A stretch of 15,828 nucleotides of DNA from a virus (lineage: Duplodnaviria; Heunggongvirae; Uroviricota; Caudoviricetes), in the IMG/VR virus record IMGVR_UViG_2700989170_000009. One strand, given 5' to 3'. Positions 1-7,812 of the stretch are shown here, piece by piece; positions within the stretch are counted from its first letter, which is position 1; every line of letters starts with the position of its first letter. A model generated the notes under the pieces. It ran no database searches. It was not told the origin of the DNA and saw nothing but the letters and a program-made list of their open reading frames with translations. Position numbers and translations under genes: made by a program.

Positions 1-1461
1 ATGAAAAAATTACTGCGTCTTTTTTTCCCGCTCTCGCTGCGGGTACGTTTTCTGTTGGCAACGGCAGCGGTAGTACTGGTGCTTTCGCTTGCCTACGGAA
101 TGGTCGCGCTGATCGGTTATAGCGTCAGTTTCGATAAAACTACGTTTCGGCTGTTACGTGGCGAGAGCAATCTGTTCTATACCCTTGCGCAGTGGGAAAA
201 CAATAAGTTGCATGTCGAGTTACCCGAAAATATCGACAAGCAAAGCCCCACCATGACGCTAATTTATGATGAGAACGGGCAGCTTTTATGGGCGCAACGT
301 GACGTGCCCTGGCTGATGAAAATGATCCAGCCTGACTGGCTGAAATCGAATGGTTTTCATGAAATTGAAGCGGATGTTAACGATACCAGCCTCTTGCTGA
401 GTGGAGATCATTCGATACAGCAACAGTTGCAGGAAGTGCGGGAAGATGATGACGACGCGGAGATGACCCACTCGGTGGCGGTAAACGTCTACCCGGCAAC
501 ATCGCGGATGCCAAAATTAACCATTGTGGTGGTGGATACCATTCCGGTGGAGCTAAAAAGTTCCTATATGGTCTGGAGCTGGTTTATCTATGTGCTCTCA
601 GCCAATCTGCTGTTAGTGATCCCGCTGCTGTGGGTCGCCGCCTGGTGGAGTTTACGCCCCATCGAAGCCCTGGCAAAAGAAGTCCGCGAACTGGAAGAAC
701 ATAACCGCGAATTGCTCAATCCAGCCACAACGCGAGAACTGACCAGTCTGGTACGAAACCTGAACCGATTGTTAAAAAGTGAACGCGAACGTTACGACAA
801 ATACCGTACGACGCTCACCGACCTGACCCATAGTCTGAAAACGCCACTGGCGGTGCTGCAAAGTACGCTGCGTTCTCTGCGTAGTGAAAAGATGAGCGTC
901 AGTGATGCTGAGCCGGTAATGCTGGAGCAAATCAGCCGCATTTCACAGCAAATTGGCTACTACCTGCATCGTGCCAGTATGCGCGGCGGGACATTGCTCA
1001 GCCGCGAGCTGCATCCGGTCGCCCCACTGCTGGACAATCTCACCTCAGCGCTGAACAAAGTGTATCAACGCAAAGGGGTCAATATCTCTCTCGATATTTC
1101 GCCAGAGATCAGCTTTGTCGGTGAGCAGAACGATTTTGTCGAGGTGATGGGCAACGTGCTGGATAATGCCTGTAAATATTGCCTCGAGTTTGTCGAAATT
1201 TCTGCAAGGCAAACCGACGAGCATCTCTATATTGTGGTCGAGGATGATGGCCCCGGTATTCCATTAAGCAAGCGAGAGGTCATTTTCGACCGTGGTCAAC
1301 GGGTTGATACTTTACGCCCTGGGCAAGGTGTAGGGCTGGCGGTAGCCCGCGAAATCACCGAGCAATATGAGGGTAAAATCGTCGCCGGAGAGAGCATGCT
1401 GGGCGGTGCGCGGATGGAGGTGATTTTTGGTCGCCAGCATTCTGCGCCGAAAGATGAATAA
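1..1461 (+). CDS. phoQ: Sensor histidine kinase PhoQ of the PhoP/PhoQ two-component system, complete (486 aa)
   Basis: Full-length ORF; translation shows two N-terminal TM segments, a periplasmic sensor with acidic patch EDDDDAE, a His-box [12 protein letters not shown], and HATPase motifs ([14 protein letters not shown]). Recognised as enterobacterial PhoQ from the sequence itself. Stop TAA at 1459-1461. Confidence 0.95.
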
Positions 1462-1577
1462 ATATGTCCTTTTACCACTACATCAAGTCATTGATTCGAT
1501 CAAACAATTTTCATTGAAAAAGTGCCAAAAATCGCAAATTGACTACACCATTAACTACACCGTTCGGTGCACTGTAT

Positions 1578-1594
1578 GAAACAACGTGGAACAA
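1578..1594 (+). promoter_or_regulatory. Two GAACAA-type hexamers (GAAACAA-cgtg-GAACAA) near the left end of the island; related to the arrays at 9185-9210 and 14507-14552
   Basis: Direct reading: gaaacaacgtggaacaa, sharing about 17 nt with 9184-9200 (tgaacaacgtggaacaa). Confidence 0.3.
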
Positions 1595-1972
1595 ATAGAC
1601 ACAAGAAATATACAGGCGGGTAATCTTTCCAGGGGGAAGCGCACCAATTCATGAGGGGCGTTAATGTCGATATGGGGATCCCCATAACGGGGCTACCGGA
1701 TTTTTTTTCCGGTTAACCTTTAATCAGGCTGGTGGGTTTTACATACCCTTGATCACCGTAATGATGATCCAGATGTGCACCTTTTCCACCAATGGCGGAA
1801 AAGCTCCAACCGTAACGATGATCGCTATGGTTGCCTCGATGGTCTGCGTGGTCATTATGACCGTTCAGCCAGTGACCTTAATCAGAATTTTTCGCTAAAA
1901 AATGACGTTGGCCACGTCATCCGGAAAGCACAAAATCACGTCGATTTTTAATGAACGGTTAAACCGTCTTTT

Positions 1973-2008
1973 TGTCACGGTGTGTCACTGGTTGTCACTC
2001 TCCGTCAC
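1973..2008 (+). promoter_or_regulatory. Four 10-bp-phased (T/C)GTCAC hexamers; candidate integrase arm-type or regulator binding array near the left junction
   Basis: TGTCAC at 1973-1978, 1983-1988, 1993-1998 and CGTCAC at 2003-2008, exactly 10 bp apart, in non-coding DNA between phoQ and the last island gene. Confidence 0.4.
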
Positions 2009-2539: not shown

Positions 2540-2552
2540 GCTGCTGACCTCA

Positions 2553-4214
2553 TTACACCCCGCTAAATTCTTCCAGTTTCTGGCGGTGGCTGTCGCTTAT
2601 ATCAAAAGCAAAATCCTCATGCTCTGCCTGGAATGTACCAAACGCCATCAGCGCCGCTACGCTCGGGTCTATCTTGTTCGGTGATTTTTTCTTGTTCGGC
2701 TTGATATTGGCGTTCGCGTCACTCTGCATCACGACGTTACTCATCGACCAGGACAACACCGGATCGCCACGATGCACAATCACCCTGCGGTTAACAAAAA
2801 CTTCGAACGATTTCGCCGCCGGACTGAATCTGAGGTAGGTTTGCGGGAACGGCTCCACCTCAAAACCAGCCCCCTGTAATTGCGTCCTGAGATGCGTGGC
2901 GTTCCACGTATCAAAGCCCACCAGCCTGATATTAAATTTCTCCGCATCCTGCATGATGTCATCTCTGATCCGGTCGTAATCAATGCAGTCACCTGGCGTT
3001 GTGCGTATCCAGCCCGCTTTAGCCCACTGGCGATAGACAGCGCGGTTTTTATTGGCGGGGTTCTGTAGCTGGAACTCCGGCAGATAATGACGGGAAATCA
3101 GCATAATGGTTTTACCGACCGGAAAGGCATAGCATACGCTGGAAATATCGCTGGTTGATGATAAGTCCAGCCCCGCGTAACACTCCTGACCGTGTAAATC
3201 TTCCTCCGTGAACGTTCCGGCACACTCAGCCCATGCACCATTACCCATCCACGGGGTAGTCCCCTGACACCAGATATTAAATCGCTTTGTCATCATCTCC
3301 ACCCACTGCGACGGAATACCCCGCGCTTTCTGGATGGTTGAGGCCAGTTTTTCACGATCCACGGAAACATCAATATTAGGGTTCGCCTTTATCCACATCG
3401 CCGGATCATCAACCTCGTTTTCGTCGTCCAGTTCGTAAATCAGTACAAAAATTGAATCGTTAACCTCTTCGCCGTCCAGGATCTGGCAGCAATAATCATA
3501 GTGCTGTTTACAGGCTGAAACGACGTTACTGCCCGATGTGGTAATGGCAAATAACAGCCCTTCGGGACGTGCGCCCATCCCCAGCTCAAGCGCGGAATAA
3601 ACGCCGTTATCGGGGTGTAGGTGGTATTCGTCCACGATGGAAAGACTGGGGTTTGTCCCCTCGATGGTTGCCGCTTTTGCTGCCAGCGGCTTTAACAGGC
3701 TGTTGCTTTTCGGGTGTATCACCTTATGCGCCTGAATATTCACCCGCCTGCGTAACGGTCGGGATAAAAGGCACATCTGACGCGCATTATCAAACACGAT
3801 CCGCGCCTGGTCACGGCTCACCGCTGCGGTGTAGATATCCTGCTGACCGTTCTCCATAATCAGAAACCAGTTAGCCAGAATCGCGGCGGTCGTGGATTTC
3901 GCATTTTTGCGCGGCACTTCGATAAAGGCGCTCGTGTATTTGCGCCGTCCGGTGGCCTTAACCTTAAAGCCGAGGATGCACGCAAAGGCGAACTGCTGCC
4001 ACGGCTCCAGCTCAATGGGTCTGCCACGCATCGGTCCTTTTACGTGCGGGCACACCCTGGAAAAGGCAATAAACCGCTCCACAACCTCACGATCGAACGT
4101 GTAAAGGGGGCTTTTAAGGTCCGAAAAGTACCGTTTAACAGCCTGTTTTAACCGTTTACAGGCCGGAATTTTGCCCGTTTTTACGTCTTCTGCGTACTTA
4201 TTCCAGGCGGTCAA
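2553..4214 (-). CDS. Terminase large subunit (TerL), HK97-like Terminase_1 type
   Basis: 553 aa; Walker A-like PRKNAKST near the N-terminus, nuclease-domain acidic residues towards the C-terminus; typical size and position after TerS. Only in-frame start is TTG at 4214-4212, with AAGAGGA 5 nt upstream; overlaps TerS by 17 nt. Confidence 0.85.
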   Translation of the reverse strand: MTAWNKYAEDVKTGKIPACKRLKQAVKRYFSDLKSPLYTFDREVVERFIAFSRVCPHVKGPMRGRPIELEPWQQFAFACILGFKVKATGRRKYTSAFIEVPRKNAKSTTAAILANWFLIMENGQQDIYTAAVSRDQARIVFDNARQMCLLSRPLRRRVNIQAHKVIHPKSNSLLKPLAAKAATIEGTNPSLSIVDEYHLHPDNGVYSALELGMGARPEGLLFAITTSGSNVVSACKQHYDYCCQILDGEEVNDSIFVLIYELDDENEVDDPAMWIKANPNIDVSVDREKLASTIQKARGIPSQWVEMMTKRFNIWCQGTTPWMGNGAWAECAGTFTEEDLHGQECYAGLDLSSTSDISSVCYAFPVGKTIMLISRHYLPEFQLQNPANKNRAVYRQWAKAGWIRTTPGDCIDYDRIRDDIMQDAEKFNIRLVGFDTWNATHLRTQLQGAGFEVEPFPQTYLRFSPAAKSFEVFVNRRVIVHRGDPVLSWSMSNVVMQSDANANIKPNKKKSPNKIDPSVAALMAFGTFQAEHEDFAFDISDSHRQKLEEFSGV

Positions 4215-4509
4215 GCTCGTCCTCTTCTTCTGTTTCCGGTGGATTTTTACGGCGGCTTATCGGGTCAAAACCGAGCAAGGAGGCCATTTTTATCATCACT
4301 CTTTCAGCGTCGGATTTTGCGCTTAATGCGGGGTTTCTGCTCTCGCCGCCCTGACTGTTAACAATGCTGAACCCGCGCGCCGCAAGGTCTGCAACGGCTT
4401 TCCGGTAAATGGAGTAGTTGACGCAATACAGTTCCAGATTGCTCCAGTCGGCGGGGGTCAGGTCTCCCCGTTCCGCAAGCTGCCGCGATTTTTCCCGCCA
4501 CTGCTTCAC
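4198..4509 (-). CDS. Terminase small subunit (TerS), P27-family-like
   Basis: 103 aa with acidic C-terminal tail (ETEEEDELDRLE) and composition typical of P27-type small terminases; sits directly upstream of and overlapping TerL. Start is GTG at 4509-4507. Confidence 0.65.
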   Translation of the reverse strand: MKQWREKSRQLAERGDLTPADWSNLELYCVNYSIYRKAVADLAARGFSIVNSQGGESRNPALSAKSDAERVMIKMASLLGFDPISRRKNPPETEEEDELDRLE

Positions 4510-4552
4510 GGCGATATCATCCAGGTAGGCGGGGGCGGGGTTGTCCTGGAAA

Positions 4553-4595
4553 NNNNNNNNNNNNNNNNNNNNNNNNNNNNNNNNNNNNNNNNNNN
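4553..4595. other. Assembly gap (43 N)
   Basis: Run of N flanked by G-rich ggcgggggcgggg-ttgtcctggaaa on the left and gtttgtcctgaaaa-cgccccccaccccg on the right. Confidence 0.95.
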
Positions 4596-4636
4596 GTTTG
4601 TCCTGAAAACGCCCCCCACCCCGTCATACAGCCTCA

Positions 4637-4810
4637 TCAGCGATTGCGGAAACATTCCATAACCTCGCGGTCACGGTCGGTTAATCGCTTCGCTGTGATG
4701 CGTTCTGCGCGTCCTGACGCTTTATCTTTATGCCCTGTTTCCTGTGTCTTCCATGCGTCACGCTGCCTTATAAGTCCACGGATAAGGCGGTTTTGTTCCC
4801 GCTCATTCAT
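4637..4810 (-). CDS. Possible small basic protein (about 57 aa) between HNH and TerS
   Basis: ATG at 4810-4808 (alternative 4819-4817) overlapping the last HNH codons; Lys/Arg-rich product MNEREQNRLIRGLIRQRDAW...; no clear Shine-Dalgarno. Weak call. Confidence 0.25.
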   Translation of the reverse strand: MNEREQNRLIRGLIRQRDAWKTQETGHKDKASGRAERITAKRLTDRDREVMECFRNR

Positions 4811-5243
4811 CAGCGTCATACATCCAGTTATTGCGGTTAGCAGCCCGTTCTTCCTCTTCACGAAATCCACCTGCGGCACGCTTGCTTTTTGTTGCCGGAT
4901 CAAGCCATTTCGTTTTCTGGTTATGACACGCCTGGCACAATGGTTGATGGTTCCATTCGGGCCAGAAGAGAACATCATCACCGCCATTAATCGGGATAAT
5001 GTGATCCACCACCACGGCGGGCGTATATATCCCCTTCTCAAGGCATCGCACGCATAACGGGTTTTTACTCAGATACATGGCGCGGTATTTGTCCCACTGT
5101 CTGGAATATCCACGCGCGCGGCGGTGTCCTCGTCTGGCATCCTCTGCACGCCATGCCGCCCGCCTGTGCTCCTCACACTTGCCGGATTTAACGCGCCTGT
5201 TACAGCCTGGTTCTGTGCATCGTCTTAATGGTTGCCACGGCAT
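4803..5243 (-). CDS. HNH endonuclease (phage packaging-associated)
   Basis: 146 aa with paired Cys (CxxC twice) and a DH...N...H core (VVVDHIIPINGGD ... CQACHNQK), as in HNH nucleases next to cos-type terminases. ATG at 5243-5241 overlaps the upstream stop (TGATG). Confidence 0.85.
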   Translation of the reverse strand: MPWQPLRRCTEPGCNRRVKSGKCEEHRRAAWRAEDARRGHRRARGYSRQWDKYRAMYLSKNPLCVRCLEKGIYTPAVVVDHIIPINGGDDVLFWPEWNHQPLCQACHNQKTKWLDPATKSKRAAGGFREEEERAANRNNWMYDADE

Positions 5244-5539
5244 CAGTACCCCCCCACATCACGGTAAGCCGTCCAGAGTGCGCCTATCGTCATGGGTACG
5301 CGTGTTTTTGCGTTATCCGCGACAATCTGGCGATTTTCATACAGGTGAGCGATAAACATCATGCAGCCAATCTTTATGGCTGGCGTGAACGCCAGCCCGT
5401 CATCAAAGCGCCTGCCTATGTGTATCTGGCACGCCTCAAGCGATGCGGCAATGTATCCGCTGATTAACTGGTCTTCATCGTCGCCATCGATGCGGCAATG
5501 GAGTTTCACTTCTTCCAGGGTGATAAGTTCTTCTGTCAT
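5243..5539 (-). CDS. gp6-like head-tail connector protein
   Basis: 98 aa beginning MTEELITLEEVKLHCRIDGDDEDQLISGYIAAS, the characteristic N-terminal signature of gp6-like connector proteins. Confidence 0.7.
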   Translation of the reverse strand: MTEELITLEEVKLHCRIDGDDEDQLISGYIAASLEACQIHIGRRFDDGLAFTPAIKIGCMMFIAHLYENRQIVADNAKTRVPMTIGALWTAYRDVGGY

Positions 5540-5606
5540 TTTTCCGCGCCCTCACGACAAAGAATTTCAAGGCGTGTCCTGGCGGCATCCGGCAGCGGCT
5601 GGCCCG

Positions 5607-5723
5607 NNNNNNNNNNNNNNNNNNNNNNNNNNNNNNNNNNNNNNNNNNNNNNNNNNNNNNNNNNNNNNNNNNNNNNNNNNNNNNNNNNNNNNNNNNNNNN
5701 NNNNNNNNNNNNNNNNNNNNNNN
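5607..5723. other. Assembly gap (117 N) interrupting the head-closure gene
   Basis: Run of N; the reading frame across it is arbitrary. Confidence 0.95.
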
Positions 5724-5933
5724 GTTGATGTCCTTCCGGTACCGTATCCAGATCCTTACGGTACCAATCGCCAGCTCTGCGCCCGATGAAATGGCCTCCT
5801 TGCTGCTGACCATGTTCACGCTTGCCCAGAGTGTGTGACCGTCCTCCCACGTTTCGAGTATTTCGCCGGTTATATCCCTGGTCTGTTTCAGGGTCTGAAT
5901 CGTTATCCTGTCACGCAGTCGCCCTATGTTCAT
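5724..5933 (-). CDS. Head closure / head-tail joining protein (Phage_H_T_join-like), 5' portion only; 3' end lost in the gap
   Basis: ATG at 5933-5931 overlaps the portal stop (ATGA); GAGGGAG upstream. Translation MNIGRLRDRITIQ...WEDGHTLWASVN...IRYRKDIN matches the RxxITIQ ... IRYRxDI pattern of head-tail joining proteins. Confidence 0.5.
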
Positions 5934-7141
5934 TCCGGTTTTTCTCCCTCGCTGATTTTTACTTCCTGTTTCCATGCCTGGCTGAACTCATCACCACCAT
6001 CACGCGGTGACAGCCCTTCACGTTCGCGGGCTTCGTTCGGACACATAACGTCGGATTTTATGCCGCGCTCATAGGTGGCAAAGCGTTCGCCAGGTGTGGC
6101 CCGTAACAGGTCCGCGCTGTCAAACTCCACCTGATACCGGATACCAGGTACAGGCGAGGCCACCAGCAAGGCGTTTTTTATCTGCTGCTCAAAGTTCGCC
6201 AGCCACGGGCGCATCGTCATGGTGAGAAATGCGCGGCTTGCCTCGCTGAAGTTGCTGTAGGTGCTGTTGCTGTATTCCTGCAAAAAAATCGGCGAGACGT
6301 TGAACATTCGGGCGATGTCTTCAATGGTGAAGCGACGGGAGGCCAGCCATTCGGCATCCTGATTACTCATGCCCAGCTGCTGATAGCTCATCCCCCCTTC
6401 AAGGATGGGCGTTTTTCCGGCGTTTCTGGCCCCTTTGTAGCGTTCCAGTGCGGCTAATGCCTGTTTGCCCTTCACGCCGTCCAGCCATTCGCCTGACGTG
6501 ATAACCCCTGCCGCCATCATGCCATCACGCATCACGCTCGCGCCGTGGCGTTGTTGGGCCAGCCCAAGCCCCAGCGATTCGCGGCAGATGGTTACAGGTG
6601 AGCGCCCCATAAAACCGTCATCCGTGGAGTAACGAAGGTGGAGAACCTCCCACGGTAAATAGTTGCGGATGTTTCCGGTGTAGGCGTCAGTGATGCAGTA
6701 GCGCCAGTTATGATCACCTGTCTGCTCCACGTTCACCGACTGCGGCGGGTAAGGATGTAAAGCCGCCGGAAAACCATCACGCCCCCACTGAATAACCGCA
6801 TAAGCATTACCACTTAACAGGCAGTAGCGGATCATCATTCGCTTAAACTGGTAGGGTGTCTGCCACGCGTTCGGGCGCTCGTTGAGGATGTGATCGACCG
6901 GATGAGAATCAAGCCATTCGCGGGCCTCCTTCCCCTTCTCATTGCGTACCAGGTACAGGTAACACGGCATGGTAGCCACCGCGTCAGAGATGACCGTGAC
7001 GGCGTTCATGACGGCGGGGAGTGATTCCGCTGTCCCAGATGATACGTACTCACCCGCCCCCGTGTTCGATGTGCCGGCCAGCGCCATAAATTCATCAAGC
7101 GTCATGCTGCGCTGCTCTTTTTTTCGTCTGAAAGGCCACAT
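5930..7141 (-). CDS. Portal protein, HK97 family
   Basis: 403 aa, typical size and composition for HK97-type portals, acidic C-terminus; placed between protease and connector genes; GGGGG Shine-Dalgarno 6 nt upstream of ATG 7141-7139. Confidence 0.85.
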   Translation of the reverse strand: MWPFRRKKEQRSMTLDEFMALAGTSNTGAGEYVSSGTAESLPAVMNAVTVISDAVATMPCYLYLVRNEKGKEAREWLDSHPVDHILNERPNAWQTPYQFKRMMIRYCLLSGNAYAVIQWGRDGFPAALHPYPPQSVNVEQTGDHNWRYCITDAYTGNIRNYLPWEVLHLRYSTDDGFMGRSPVTICRESLGLGLAQQRHGASVMRDGMMAAGVITSGEWLDGVKGKQALAALERYKGARNAGKTPILEGGMSYQQLGMSNQDAEWLASRRFTIEDIARMFNVSPIFLQEYSNSTYSNFSEASRAFLTMTMRPWLANFEQQIKNALLVASPVPGIRYQVEFDSADLLRATPGERFATYERGIKSDVMCPNEAREREGLSPRDGGDEFSQAWKQEVKISEGEKPE

Positions 7142-7209
7142 ATCACACCCCCGCTAAATCCGCCCACCAGCGGCGATTATCCGCACGCGGCATTTTTTCG
7201 GGGTGCTGC

Positions 7210-7773
7210 TCATACAGGGAACGGCGGGGCCGCCNNNNNNNNNNNNNNNNNNNNNNNNNNNNNNNNNNNNNNNNNNNNNNNNNNNNNNNNNNNNNNNNNN
7301 NNNNNNNNNNNNNNNNNNNNNNNNGTAACGGTAATTTCGTACAGTTCCGCCACCAGCACGGTGCGCACGCATGGATCTGTTGTGGTATCCCATACATCCT
7401 TACGGGAGCGAAAGCCAAAGCTCATCCCCGAGATGTCCCCACGCTTAACCAGTTCGATAACGTCGCGCCCTGTACTGGTATCCGGTGGGGTCAGTTCAAA
7501 GCGTAACCCTGTTTCGTCCTCTTCCAGTTTCAGCGTGCCGGAACGGGTGCGCCCCAGTAACATGCTGTGGTCATGCTCATACAGGCCGCGAACGTCATTA
7601 CCCGCCGCAAGCCATTCAGTAAACGCCCCCCGCTGGAATTTTTCGTAAAACTCACCCCATAACAGTTCTGAAAGCTTATCCCAGCGAACAACGTAGCCCG
7701 TCAGCGTACCGGCTCCGCTGGTGGTGATTTCCGATGACCGGATTTCCATACTCTTCATAATTTTTTCACCCAT
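7210..7773 (-). CDS. Prohead maturation protease, HK97 family (S78 peptidase); C-terminal part spans a gap
   Basis: Translation contains the catalytic His (LYEHDH) and Ser (GMSFGF) motifs of HK97 prohead protease. ATG at 7773-7771. Residues after 7325 are uncertain because of the 90-N gap at 7235-7324. Confidence 0.75.
   Translation of the reverse strand: MGEKIMKSMEIRSSEITTSGAGTLTGYVVRWDKLSELLWGEFYEKFQRGAFTEWLAAGNDVRGLYEHDHSMLLGRTRSGTLKLEEDETGLRFELTPPDTSTGRDVIELVKRGDISGMSFGFRSRKDVWDTTTDPCVRTVLVAELYEITVXXXXXXXXXXXXXXXXXXXXXXXXXXXXXXXAAPPFPV
7235..7324. other. Assembly gap (90 N)
   Basis: Run of N with GC-rich left flank (acggcggggccgcc). Confidence 0.95.
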
Positions 7774-7782
7774 AAAACACTA

Positions 7783-7802
7783 AAGGGGCTTTTTAGCCCC
7801 TT
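7783..7802 (-). terminator. Hairpin between capsid and protease genes; possible partial terminator or attenuator
   Basis: Perfect 8-bp stem (aaggggct / agcccctt) with a 4-nt loop, followed on the minus strand by uuaguguuuu just before the protease ATG. Confidence 0.35.
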
Positions 7803-7812
7803 CTGTATGCTG

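Follow-up and report, generated by a model that had tools for sequence, protein, structure and literature searches.

Helically phased GAACAA arrays in both att arms, upstream of alpA and upstream of the capsid operon of a capsid-forming PICI as candidate AlpA operators

Results

Gene content of the island

The DNA analysed here, hereinafter the window, is a stretch of 15,828 nt (IMG/VR record IMGVR_UViG_2700989170_000009). The window holds a capsid-forming phage-inducible chromosomal island (cf-PICI) of the EcCIEDL933 type (bioRxiv 10.1101/2022.09.08.507074), integrated between phoQ and roxA. Specifically, it contains the features that define capsid-forming PICIs, namely an int-alpA-pri module, its own HK97-type capsid, portal, protease, HNH and terminase genes, and a PICI-specific att site. 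The same phoQ-roxA att site is also used by EcCICFT073. The gene content was read from the list of open reading frames (ORFs), from Pfam and NCBIfam matches, and from the RefSeq annotation of a 96%-identical locus (L001). The window is 99.9–100% identical to a locus of Shigella flexneri SFBU1023 (L007), except for masked N-runs and one 340-bp difference.

The host gene phoQ occupies positions 1–1461 on the plus strand, as given by the ORF list and by the RefSeq annotation of matching records. The HK97-type head and packaging module (capsid, protease, portal, connectors, HNH, small and large terminase) extends from about 8970 to 2553 on the minus strand. A D5/primase-type replication gene is located at 12062–10314 (minus strand), and a replication origin with at least 12 GGTAGAC/GTCTACC iterons in both orientations lies at 10069–10303, directly downstream of pri. 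The gene alpA (14036–14224, minus strand; Pfam PF05930, 5e-18) encodes a protein of 62 aa, which is the proposed binder of the arrays described below. The gene int (14599–15828, minus strand; Pfam PF13356 and PF00589) encodes a tyrosine integrase of the P4 type, with an arm-binding domain at its N terminus. The start codon of int is the end of the window, and the right att arm, which was read in L001 and L007, lies just beyond 15828. An Rfam scan of the whole window gave no match.

Ends of the island

The left att crossover core, AAATATGTCC, lies at 1460–1469 and overlaps the stop codon of phoQ (1459–1461). It occurs once in the window, with up to one mismatch allowed. The right-hand core is the same 10-mer and is located between int and roxA (L001 19601–19610; also in L007). 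A single copy is found in an empty site (L002), which reads gatgaataAATATGTCCatacttcac. Because AAATATGTCC flanks the island on both sides in carriers, island DNA begins at 1470.

Comparison with complete E. coli genomes gives the same boundary. phoQ was matched in 5426 of 5426 genomes and most of the matches end at window positions 1466–1469, while at least 80% of the interval 1300–2200 is carried by 47 of the 5426. An earlier note, made from the letters of the window, had drawn attention to a repeat about 115 bp after phoQ and had asked whether the DNA around it belongs to the host or to the island. The distance was correct, with the repeat starting at 1577, and the segment is island DNA; the empty site L002 contradicts the possibility that it is present unchanged in island-free strains. 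Excised circular attP junctions were sought among the fetched contigs and none was found; host DNA follows all 13 right arms.

Anatomy and statistics of the phased arrays

The repeat pair consists of tgaaacaacgtggaacaa at 1577–1594 and tgaacaacgtggaacaa at 9184–9200. The two sequences have in common an exact 15-mer, AACAACGTGGAACAA (1580–1594 and 9186–9200), and are 77% identical over 35 nt. By our own estimate, about 0.2 pairs of one repeated 15-mer are expected by chance in 15.8 kb, and the repeats listed for the window include many chance families of 13–17 nt. What sets the pair beyond chance is not the length of the 15-mer, but its internal phased structure and its recurrence. Specifically, the pattern ACAA-N6-ACAA-N6-ACAA, with at most one mismatch, has 7 matches in the window compared with 0.10 expected, and 7 matches were reached in 0 of 200 shuffles. 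The 14-mer ACAACGTGNAACAA, which opens each array, occurs three times in the window compared with 0.00 expected.

The pair is therefore real, as the earlier note had claimed, and it extends to a set of four arrays. Array A (1577–1606, plus strand), which contains the flagged repeat, has three units, TGAAACAACG, TGGAACAAAT and AGACACAAGA, in exact 10-bp phase. Array B (9183–9212, plus strand) comprises GTGAACAACG, TGGAACAACC and ACGAACAAAT, and a weak ACAA phase runs on to 9232. Array C (14505–14554, minus strand) has five units in 10-bp phase (ATACAAC, GCAACAA, GCAACAA, GGAACAA and CGAACAA) and an extra pseudo-unit at 14495–14504. The fourth array lies outside the window, between int and the right core (L001 19485–19518, L007 8308–8341), which bears out the suggestion that a further copy might be found beyond int. 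At exact 10-bp spacing the arrays thus have 3, 3(+2) and 5(+1) units in the window and 4 units in the right arm. Three or more direct repeats spaced by about one helical turn (10–11 bp) are a feature of the operators of recombination directionality factors (RDFs).

Loci of 20–30 kb including host flanks were scanned, and no arrays besides these were found. A scan of the window with a position weight matrix for a single unit gave 234 matches. One 10-bp unit is too low in information, so only the phased arrays are informative.

Two kinds of repeat in the att arms

The left arm contains a second repeat, the doubled motif ACTACACC-N4-ACTACACC with 12-bp spacing (1542–1561, plus strand), which occurs nowhere else in the window and which we consider to be candidate arm-type sites of Int. 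Its centre lies about 87 bp away from that of the core, and another copy in the same orientation is located beside int, about 140 bp from the core. Array A starts 16 nt after the doubled motif and, at 112–141 bp from the core, belongs to the P' arm of the island, the int-distal one, so the earlier placing of the repeat in an att arm holds. Together, the doubled motif and array A make up a conserved 79-bp arm module (1527–1605, plus strand) with a co-oriented homologue beside int in the right arm. Each arm thus contains a co-oriented module of about 60 bp, in which ACTACACC-N4-ACTACACC is followed by g.tcg.tgcac and then by phased ACAA units. In the right arm the four-unit array sits beside the doubled motif, between it and the core, and a second cluster, GAACAAtctGAAACAttatGAAAC, lies nearer the core.

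The P4-type geometry of arm sites (doubled, 12-bp spacing, at about −135/+80) is that of the ACTACACC pairs and not that of the GAACAA arrays. Because the geometry of the ACTACACC pairs matches the attP of P4 and of helper-embedded PICIs (HE-PICIs), we assign these pairs to Int and the arrays to another binder. The resulting map would separate the arm sites of Int from the sites of an accessory factor in a widespread integrase clade.

Array B and the late cassette

Array B lies at the upstream edge of the cf-PICI late cassette, upstream of the capsid operon. A TTTGTAAATTAT box (9211–9222, minus strand) is located directly upstream of array B in the direction of the operon and is kept across diverged cf-PICI lineages (the window type and L179–L186). 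An intrinsic terminator (9234–9251, minus strand) ends the upstream replication/accessory operon. At 9138–9165 (minus strand) lies a weak element resembling a promoter, which could serve the capsid/packaging operon; it has a −35 hexamer TTTACC at 9165–9160, a 16-nt spacer and a −10 hexamer TATTCT at 9143–9138. This element was read by eye and scores below the threshold of the promoter scanner. A diverged relative (L185) keeps both hexamers and the 16-nt spacing with a different spacer sequence. If the element is the promoter of the capsid operon, array B would be placed at about −56 to −77.

Among the relatives, the cf-PICIs L001, L003 and L004 have array B and the classical PICIs L005 and L006 lack it; from 9230 on, L005 is again homologous to the window. 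EcCICFT073 shares window positions 1–1804, 2256–2539 and everything from 9230 onward, but not 2540–9229. The late module is an exchangeable cassette, with one breakpoint at the terminator. The earlier note had raised the possibility that the head module and the int-primase module were once separate units. This possibility is not supported: the comparison with EcCICFT073 shows replacement of a cassette and is no evidence for a fusion of two integrating units.

At the capsid-upstream position of diverged cf-PICIs, the TTTGTAAATTAT box is followed by three phased repeats of lineage-specific sequence (TTACCC type), which suggests that box and repeats are a regulatory element of the late operon. 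The capsid-upstream repeats look like an element of this kind that is matched to the regulator of each lineage. Elsewhere in the diverged cf-PICI loci no TTACCC-type phased repeats were found, and these loci do not replicate the four-site system independently. An att-like duplication and its remnant, which had been suggested as another source of the repeat pair, do not fit this regulatory pattern. We also rejected array B as a vestigial att site, since it has neither the core, which occurs only at 1460–1469, nor the doubled ACTACACC motif, which occurs only at 1542–1561.

Array C and AlpA

Array C sits between the int stop (14599) and alpA, 270–330 bp upstream of the alpA start. Among eight distinct variants of array C, 0 of 20 ACAA columns vary, compared with 12 of 28 spacer columns (Fisher p = 5e-4). 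Arrays B and C have opposite orientations relative to their downstream genes, and no strong σ70 promoter is predicted beside array B or array C.

AlpA falls in the PHROG 'excisionase and transcriptional regulator'. The best fold matches of its AlphaFold model (pLDDT 86.8) are the GIsul2 excisionase 8c3t (TM 0.83–0.90), RdfS, Pukovnik Xis and TorI. Thus, the cognate small excisionase-fold factor that is expected of RDF operator systems is present in the island, as alpA. In EcCICFT073, AlpA activates its own promoter, while expression of Pint-lacZ is unchanged by AlpA (PMC6092414). AlpA alone triggers excision in close relatives. In PICMI satellites, alpA alone is sufficient for excision and transcription is unaltered by AlpA (PMC10803314). 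The AlpA antiterminator of P. aeruginosa was set aside, as it is a different, larger protein with a GGGACG element.

Conservation of the arrays across relatives

The 14-mer ACAACGTGNAACAA is present in exactly four copies in each of eight fetched contigs or records that span the whole island; the whole-island set is named as the L001, L003, L004, L140, L144, L147, L154, L158, L170 region set. The order and orientation of the copies are constant (right arm, int-alpA spacer, capsid upstream, left arm). Shorter IMG/VR contigs contain 1–3 copies, and in 153 other fetched loci in which ACAACGTGNAACAA was sought there is none. Four copies of ACAACGTGNAACAA in fixed order may thus serve as a signature that delimits complete islands and their ends.

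The arm module is conserved beyond the sequences that surround it. L006 has a different core (CACGATATT) and different flanks, and the sole left-end block that it shares with the window is 1527–1605, at 94.9% identity. The last unit of array A marks the end of this block, which can also be aligned to the L006 right arm, with 78.7% identity. Array A is kept in all relatives with AlpA allele 1. In islands with AlpA allele 2, which is about 55–68% identical, the arrays of the arms and upstream of alpA are shifted towards CGAAC(A) units and ACTACACC is kept. Specifically, L174 and L198, as well as L143, which has the same left arm, have unrelated flanks and three CGAACAA units beside an unchanged ACTACACC pair. 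TTGTTC repeats beside a pair of GTGTAGTC are still found in more distant islands, whose Int is about 54% and whose AlpA is 60–65% identical; Kosakonia, Enterobacter and Hafnia are among their sources. The L006 block, the columns of array C, and the allele-2 and distant islands all indicate that the array units themselves are under selection. Arrays A and C and the right-arm array are common to cf-PICIs and classical PICIs, which package differently. In six HE-PICI loci, which were fetched by the doubled motif (AlpA 54–60% and Int 40–45% identical), no clear arrays were found in the arms, so these loci do not help to tell Int from AlpA as the binder; alpA directly follows int in them.

The comparison suggests a weak co-variation between AlpA allele and array. 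Since int and alpA are passed on together with both arms in a single module, this co-variation cannot cleanly separate AlpA from Int. The search for AlpA homologues gave 19 proteins and the genome scan 10 loci, which is enough for conservation and not for a decisive test of co-variation.

Discussion

AlpA is the master switch of Gram-negative PICIs, and the searchable papers define no DNA target for it; likewise, neither a mapped operator of a PICI AlpA nor mapped Vis sites of P4 could be retrieved from the literature searched. We propose, with a probability of roughly 0.6, that the four arrays are operator arrays bound by the AlpA of the island. A separate motif is assigned to Int and separate iterons to Pri-Rep, and few other DNA-binding proteins are conserved, which leaves AlpA as the candidate binder. 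Because AlpA triggers excision and activates its own promoter, an AlpA site is expected upstream of alpA and at att, and these positions are occupied by array C, array A and the right-arm array. RDFs of this fold bind tandem repeats one helical turn apart in a head-to-tail manner, and those directionality factors that serve two purposes have arrays at promoters as well as at att (PMC7498355). The earlier suggestion that the repeat after phoQ binds an RDF is thus probably the best-fitting one, given the arm position, the phase and the fold of AlpA.

According to this proposal, AlpA, as a 62-aa winged-helix protein of the excisionase fold, would bind all four arrays head-to-tail and cooperatively. 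At the att arms, beside the arm-type sites of Int, it would shape the excisive intasome and so act as an RDF. At array C it would autoactivate transcription of alpA, while at array B it would turn on the late operon for packaging. Excision and late gene expression would in this way be coupled by one protein that the helper induces.

Several observations count against the AlpA reading. Array A is distal to the Int arm sites as seen from the core, unlike the position of a classic arm-bending factor. In EcCICFT073 AlpA leaves Pint unaffected, despite the location of the right-arm arrays between int and the core. The orientations of arrays B and C, the distance of array C from alpA, the weakness of the promoters, the array-less arms of HE-PICIs and the transcription result in PICMI satellites also weigh against it.

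The GAACAA arrays might instead be arm-type sites for the N-terminal domain of Int, with arrays B and C as extra Int sites for regulation or titration. The tandem arm-type sites P'1–P'3 of lambda are likewise spaced at about one helical turn. Moreover, Int has an arm-binding domain (PF13356), arrays lie beside the core in both att arms, and Int and the arrays are inherited together. We regard this alternative as unlikely, because the positions of arm repeats are filled by ACTACACC-N4-ACTACACC (−140/+87, compared with −134/+75 in P4 and 132/81 in HE-PICI), and because four ACTACACC half-sites fit an Int tetramer, whereas the at least 10 GAACAA units of the arms are too many. Int arm sites are also expected to be confined to the att region, whereas arrays B and C are internal, at a distance of 5–7 kb from any core and without a neighbouring ACTACACC. 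Finally, allele-2 islands alter the array units and keep ACTACACC. It is quite improbable that the arrays, or at least array C, are targets of an Xis/Cox-type protein of a helper phage that activates the island, at sites that AlpA may share. Helper phages do switch on the transcription of alpA, through a factor left unnamed in the published work (PMC6092414). P4 has three 10-bp-phased repeats containing TTAAAG upstream of vis, annotated as 'ori type 2 repeat'. These repeats are presumably Cox boxes, and P2 Cox activates the P4 late promoter. However, the array units track the island lineage and the AlpA allele, which is unexpected for sites read by diverse helpers, and the copies in the att arms make sense for a factor of the island itself. 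A combination of both proteins, with a helper Xis/Cox-type protein switching on alpA from array C and AlpA passing the signal on to the att arms and to the capsid operon, seems slightly more doubtful still; such a shared landing pad, if real, would identify how helper phages induce Gram-negative PICIs.

Phased short repeats are typical of PICI origins, as in L187, where GTGTTCACC iterons flank an AT-rich stretch; the phased repeats of L187 thus proved to be ori-type iterons. That the GAACAA arrays are replication iterons of Pri-Rep, or packaging sites of the cosB type, is nevertheless very unlikely. The arrays are unidirectional and lie in the att arms and upstream of genes, and we rejected them as ori iterons on the ground that the motif of the origin, GGTAGAC/GTCTACC, is different. 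Packaging sites would hardly be expected in arrays A and C and the right-arm array, which cf-PICIs share with the differently packaging classical PICIs. A chance match between 1577–1594 and 9184–9200, or a functionless piece of host sequence, can practically be dismissed. By itself, a single pair of exact 15-mers would not be an improbable find in 15.8 kb, and chance repeats of 13–17 nt are many, but the phased pattern (7 against 0.10), the copies of ACAACGTGNAACAA (3 against 0.00), their fixed number of four per whole island and their count of 0 in the 153 control loci refute chance. The segment is also absent from island-free genomes, and the columns of the units are invariant while those of the spacers vary.

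If the arrays are AlpA operators, the four-site map provides a testable model in which one small protein couples excision to the activation of alpA and of the capsid genes. Such an Apl-, Cox- or Vis-like pattern is useful to PICI specialists and unsurprising in principle.

The known systems resemble the island in different respects. P4 has a P4-type Int and doubled arm repeats with 12-bp spacing at about −134/+75 from the core, as the island has; its annotated 'attP arm sequence repeats' are doubled 12-mers. Its Vis protein is a homologue of AlpA and is annotated 'excisionase and transcriptional regulator', as is the PHROG of the island AlpA. Beside the int-proximal arm repeats, P4 has a 10-bp-phased triple, cGGACAA cctcGGAAGA cgcaGGACGA, and we infer that this GGAnnA triple may be a binding site of Vis. 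The sequences differ from those of the island (ATGCCCCCA in the arm repeats, GGAnnA in the units), and P4 has no capsid operon. The attP of HE-PICI has, like the island, a co-oriented doubled 8-mer with 12-bp spacing, 81 and 132 bp from the core compared with 87 and 140 bp here, which was proposed to provide four Int arm half-sites (Tommasini et al. 2023, PMC10111431). The sequence of that motif is TGTATTGC rather than ACTACACC, and no second helically phased array was reported (PMC10111431).

Among winged-helix factors, TorI binds five cooperative sites at KplE1 attL, and lambda Xis binds X1-X1.5-X2; the island resembles both in having multiple sites, presumably cooperative, within one att arm, and in its fold the AlpA model is a match for TorI and Xis. 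The TorI and lambda Xis sites are on one arm only, whereas the arrays of the island are on both arms and at two internal sites, and lambda Xis sites are not reported at separate promoters, unlike the island arrays. Coliphage 186 Apl and P2 Cox have helically phased direct repeats at att and in a promoter region, as the island has at att and in putative promoter regions, with 5 sites at att and 7 at pR-pL in the case of Apl, and they are small cooperative proteins that act both as excisionase and as transcription regulator, as proposed here for AlpA (PMC7498355). The promoters repressed by Apl and Cox are face-to-face lytic and lysogenic ones, whereas the published effect of AlpA is activation. 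Unlike the Apl and Cox sites, the arrays of the island occupy both att arms and a position upstream of a late structural operon, and the protein that probably binds them, AlpA, is of a different sequence family, PF05930.

Capsid gene and its leader

The capsid gene of the island (8970-7813, minus strand) contains an in-frame stop codon at 8143-8145 (minus), which falls at residue 276 of a major capsid protein that is 385 aa long. In this copy, the island is probably unable to form capsids of its own. The same stop codon is present in Shigella flexneri SFBU1023, in which the stretch is 100% identical to the window.

The leader of the capsid operon (8968-9135, minus) is strongly structured, with a minimum free energy of −65.9 kcal/mol and a z-score of −5.3. 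Specifically, a long hairpin is formed by arms at 9061-9077 and 9092-9108 (minus), and a terminator-like hairpin at 8978-9007 (minus), followed by U7, lies immediately 5’ of the capsid ATG (8970). Blocks of the leader are kept in L185, a diverged capsid-forming relative (cf-PICI), and an Rfam scan of the window returned no family match. These features of the leader suggest that the capsid operon is controlled by attenuation or antitermination.

Masked stretches and the PerC-like ORF

The late module is interrupted by three masked runs of N, at 4553-4595 (43 nt), 5607-5723 (117 nt), and 7235-7324 (90 nt); the corresponding sequence is present in S. flexneri SFBU1023. The PerC-like ORF (9274-9435) encodes 53 aa here, compared with 90 aa in relatives. 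At this point (9230-9252 and 9274-9435), S. flexneri SFBU1023 has 340 extra bp between two copies of a 23-bp terminator segment, which suggests that a deletion took place between repeated hairpins.

Left end and replication origin

In the stretch that runs from the att arm to the last late gene, four GTCAC units with exact 10-bp spacing form a phased array (1974-2008, plus strand), preceded by a terminator-like hairpin (1955-1967). The motif is unrelated to the GAACAA arrays, and its phased pattern gives two overlapping matches in the window, compared with 0.01 expected. The 96%-identical relative L001 and L198, a classical PICI, both carry the array; the cf-PICI L003 lacks it. The array could serve as a binding site, either of the cosB type or for another protein. 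The conserved left-end segment also includes a near-palindrome, CGATATGGGGATCCCCATAACG (1668-1689), a perfect 22-bp version of which occurs near the int-distal end of two unrelated helper-embedded PICIs (L058 and L051). This near-palindrome may be a packaging (cos) site or another conserved site.

The replication origin (10069-10303) is located directly downstream of the primase gene. Its AT-rich stretches are surrounded by GGTAGAC/GTCTACC iterons, which number at least 12 and occur in both orientations.

Region upstream of alpA

Two TGTGTC units 10 bp apart (14278-14293; GACACA on the minus strand) precede the alpA start by 55-70 bp and have the same orientation as array C, the minus-strand GAACAA array at 14505-14554. 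The pair overlaps a predicted promoter (−10 CACAAT) and may represent candidate weak proximal operator units. In the diverged relatives L008-L012, an additional gene, about 900 bp long, lies between int and alpA, and a GC-rich hairpin with a T-run (gccctcGAACtgtaacGAACGAgggcgttttt) containing GAAC-N6-GAAC immediately precedes alpA (in L008, just upstream of 10001).

Core specificity and comparison with other elements

Close integrase relatives that are 87-97% identical are associated with differing att cores, namely GCTGTTAT, CACGATATT, and ATAACTATCAT. The islands with other cores are integrated at tqsA (L003, L004, and others), smrA-abgR (L006), and clpS-cspD (L198). Both arms are conserved across these islands, up to ...ATAAAAT just before the crossover, making them a convenient set for studying change of core specificity.

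Downstream of the diverged cf-PICI in L184 are two further phased arrays with another motif: TTTGCCA x4 (14395-14431) and, in the opposite orientation, TGGCAA x6 (16084-16140). Both are probably part of a neighbouring element. Phage P4 has phased repeat sets at 3977-4006 and 9176-9205. Upstream of P4 vis, three annotated ‘ori type 2 repeats’, the Cox boxes, contain TTAAAG. A 10-bp-phased triple, cGGACAAcct cGGAAGAcgc aGGACGAaaa, adjoins the int-proximal arm repeats of P4, a position analogous to that of the right-arm array of the window island.
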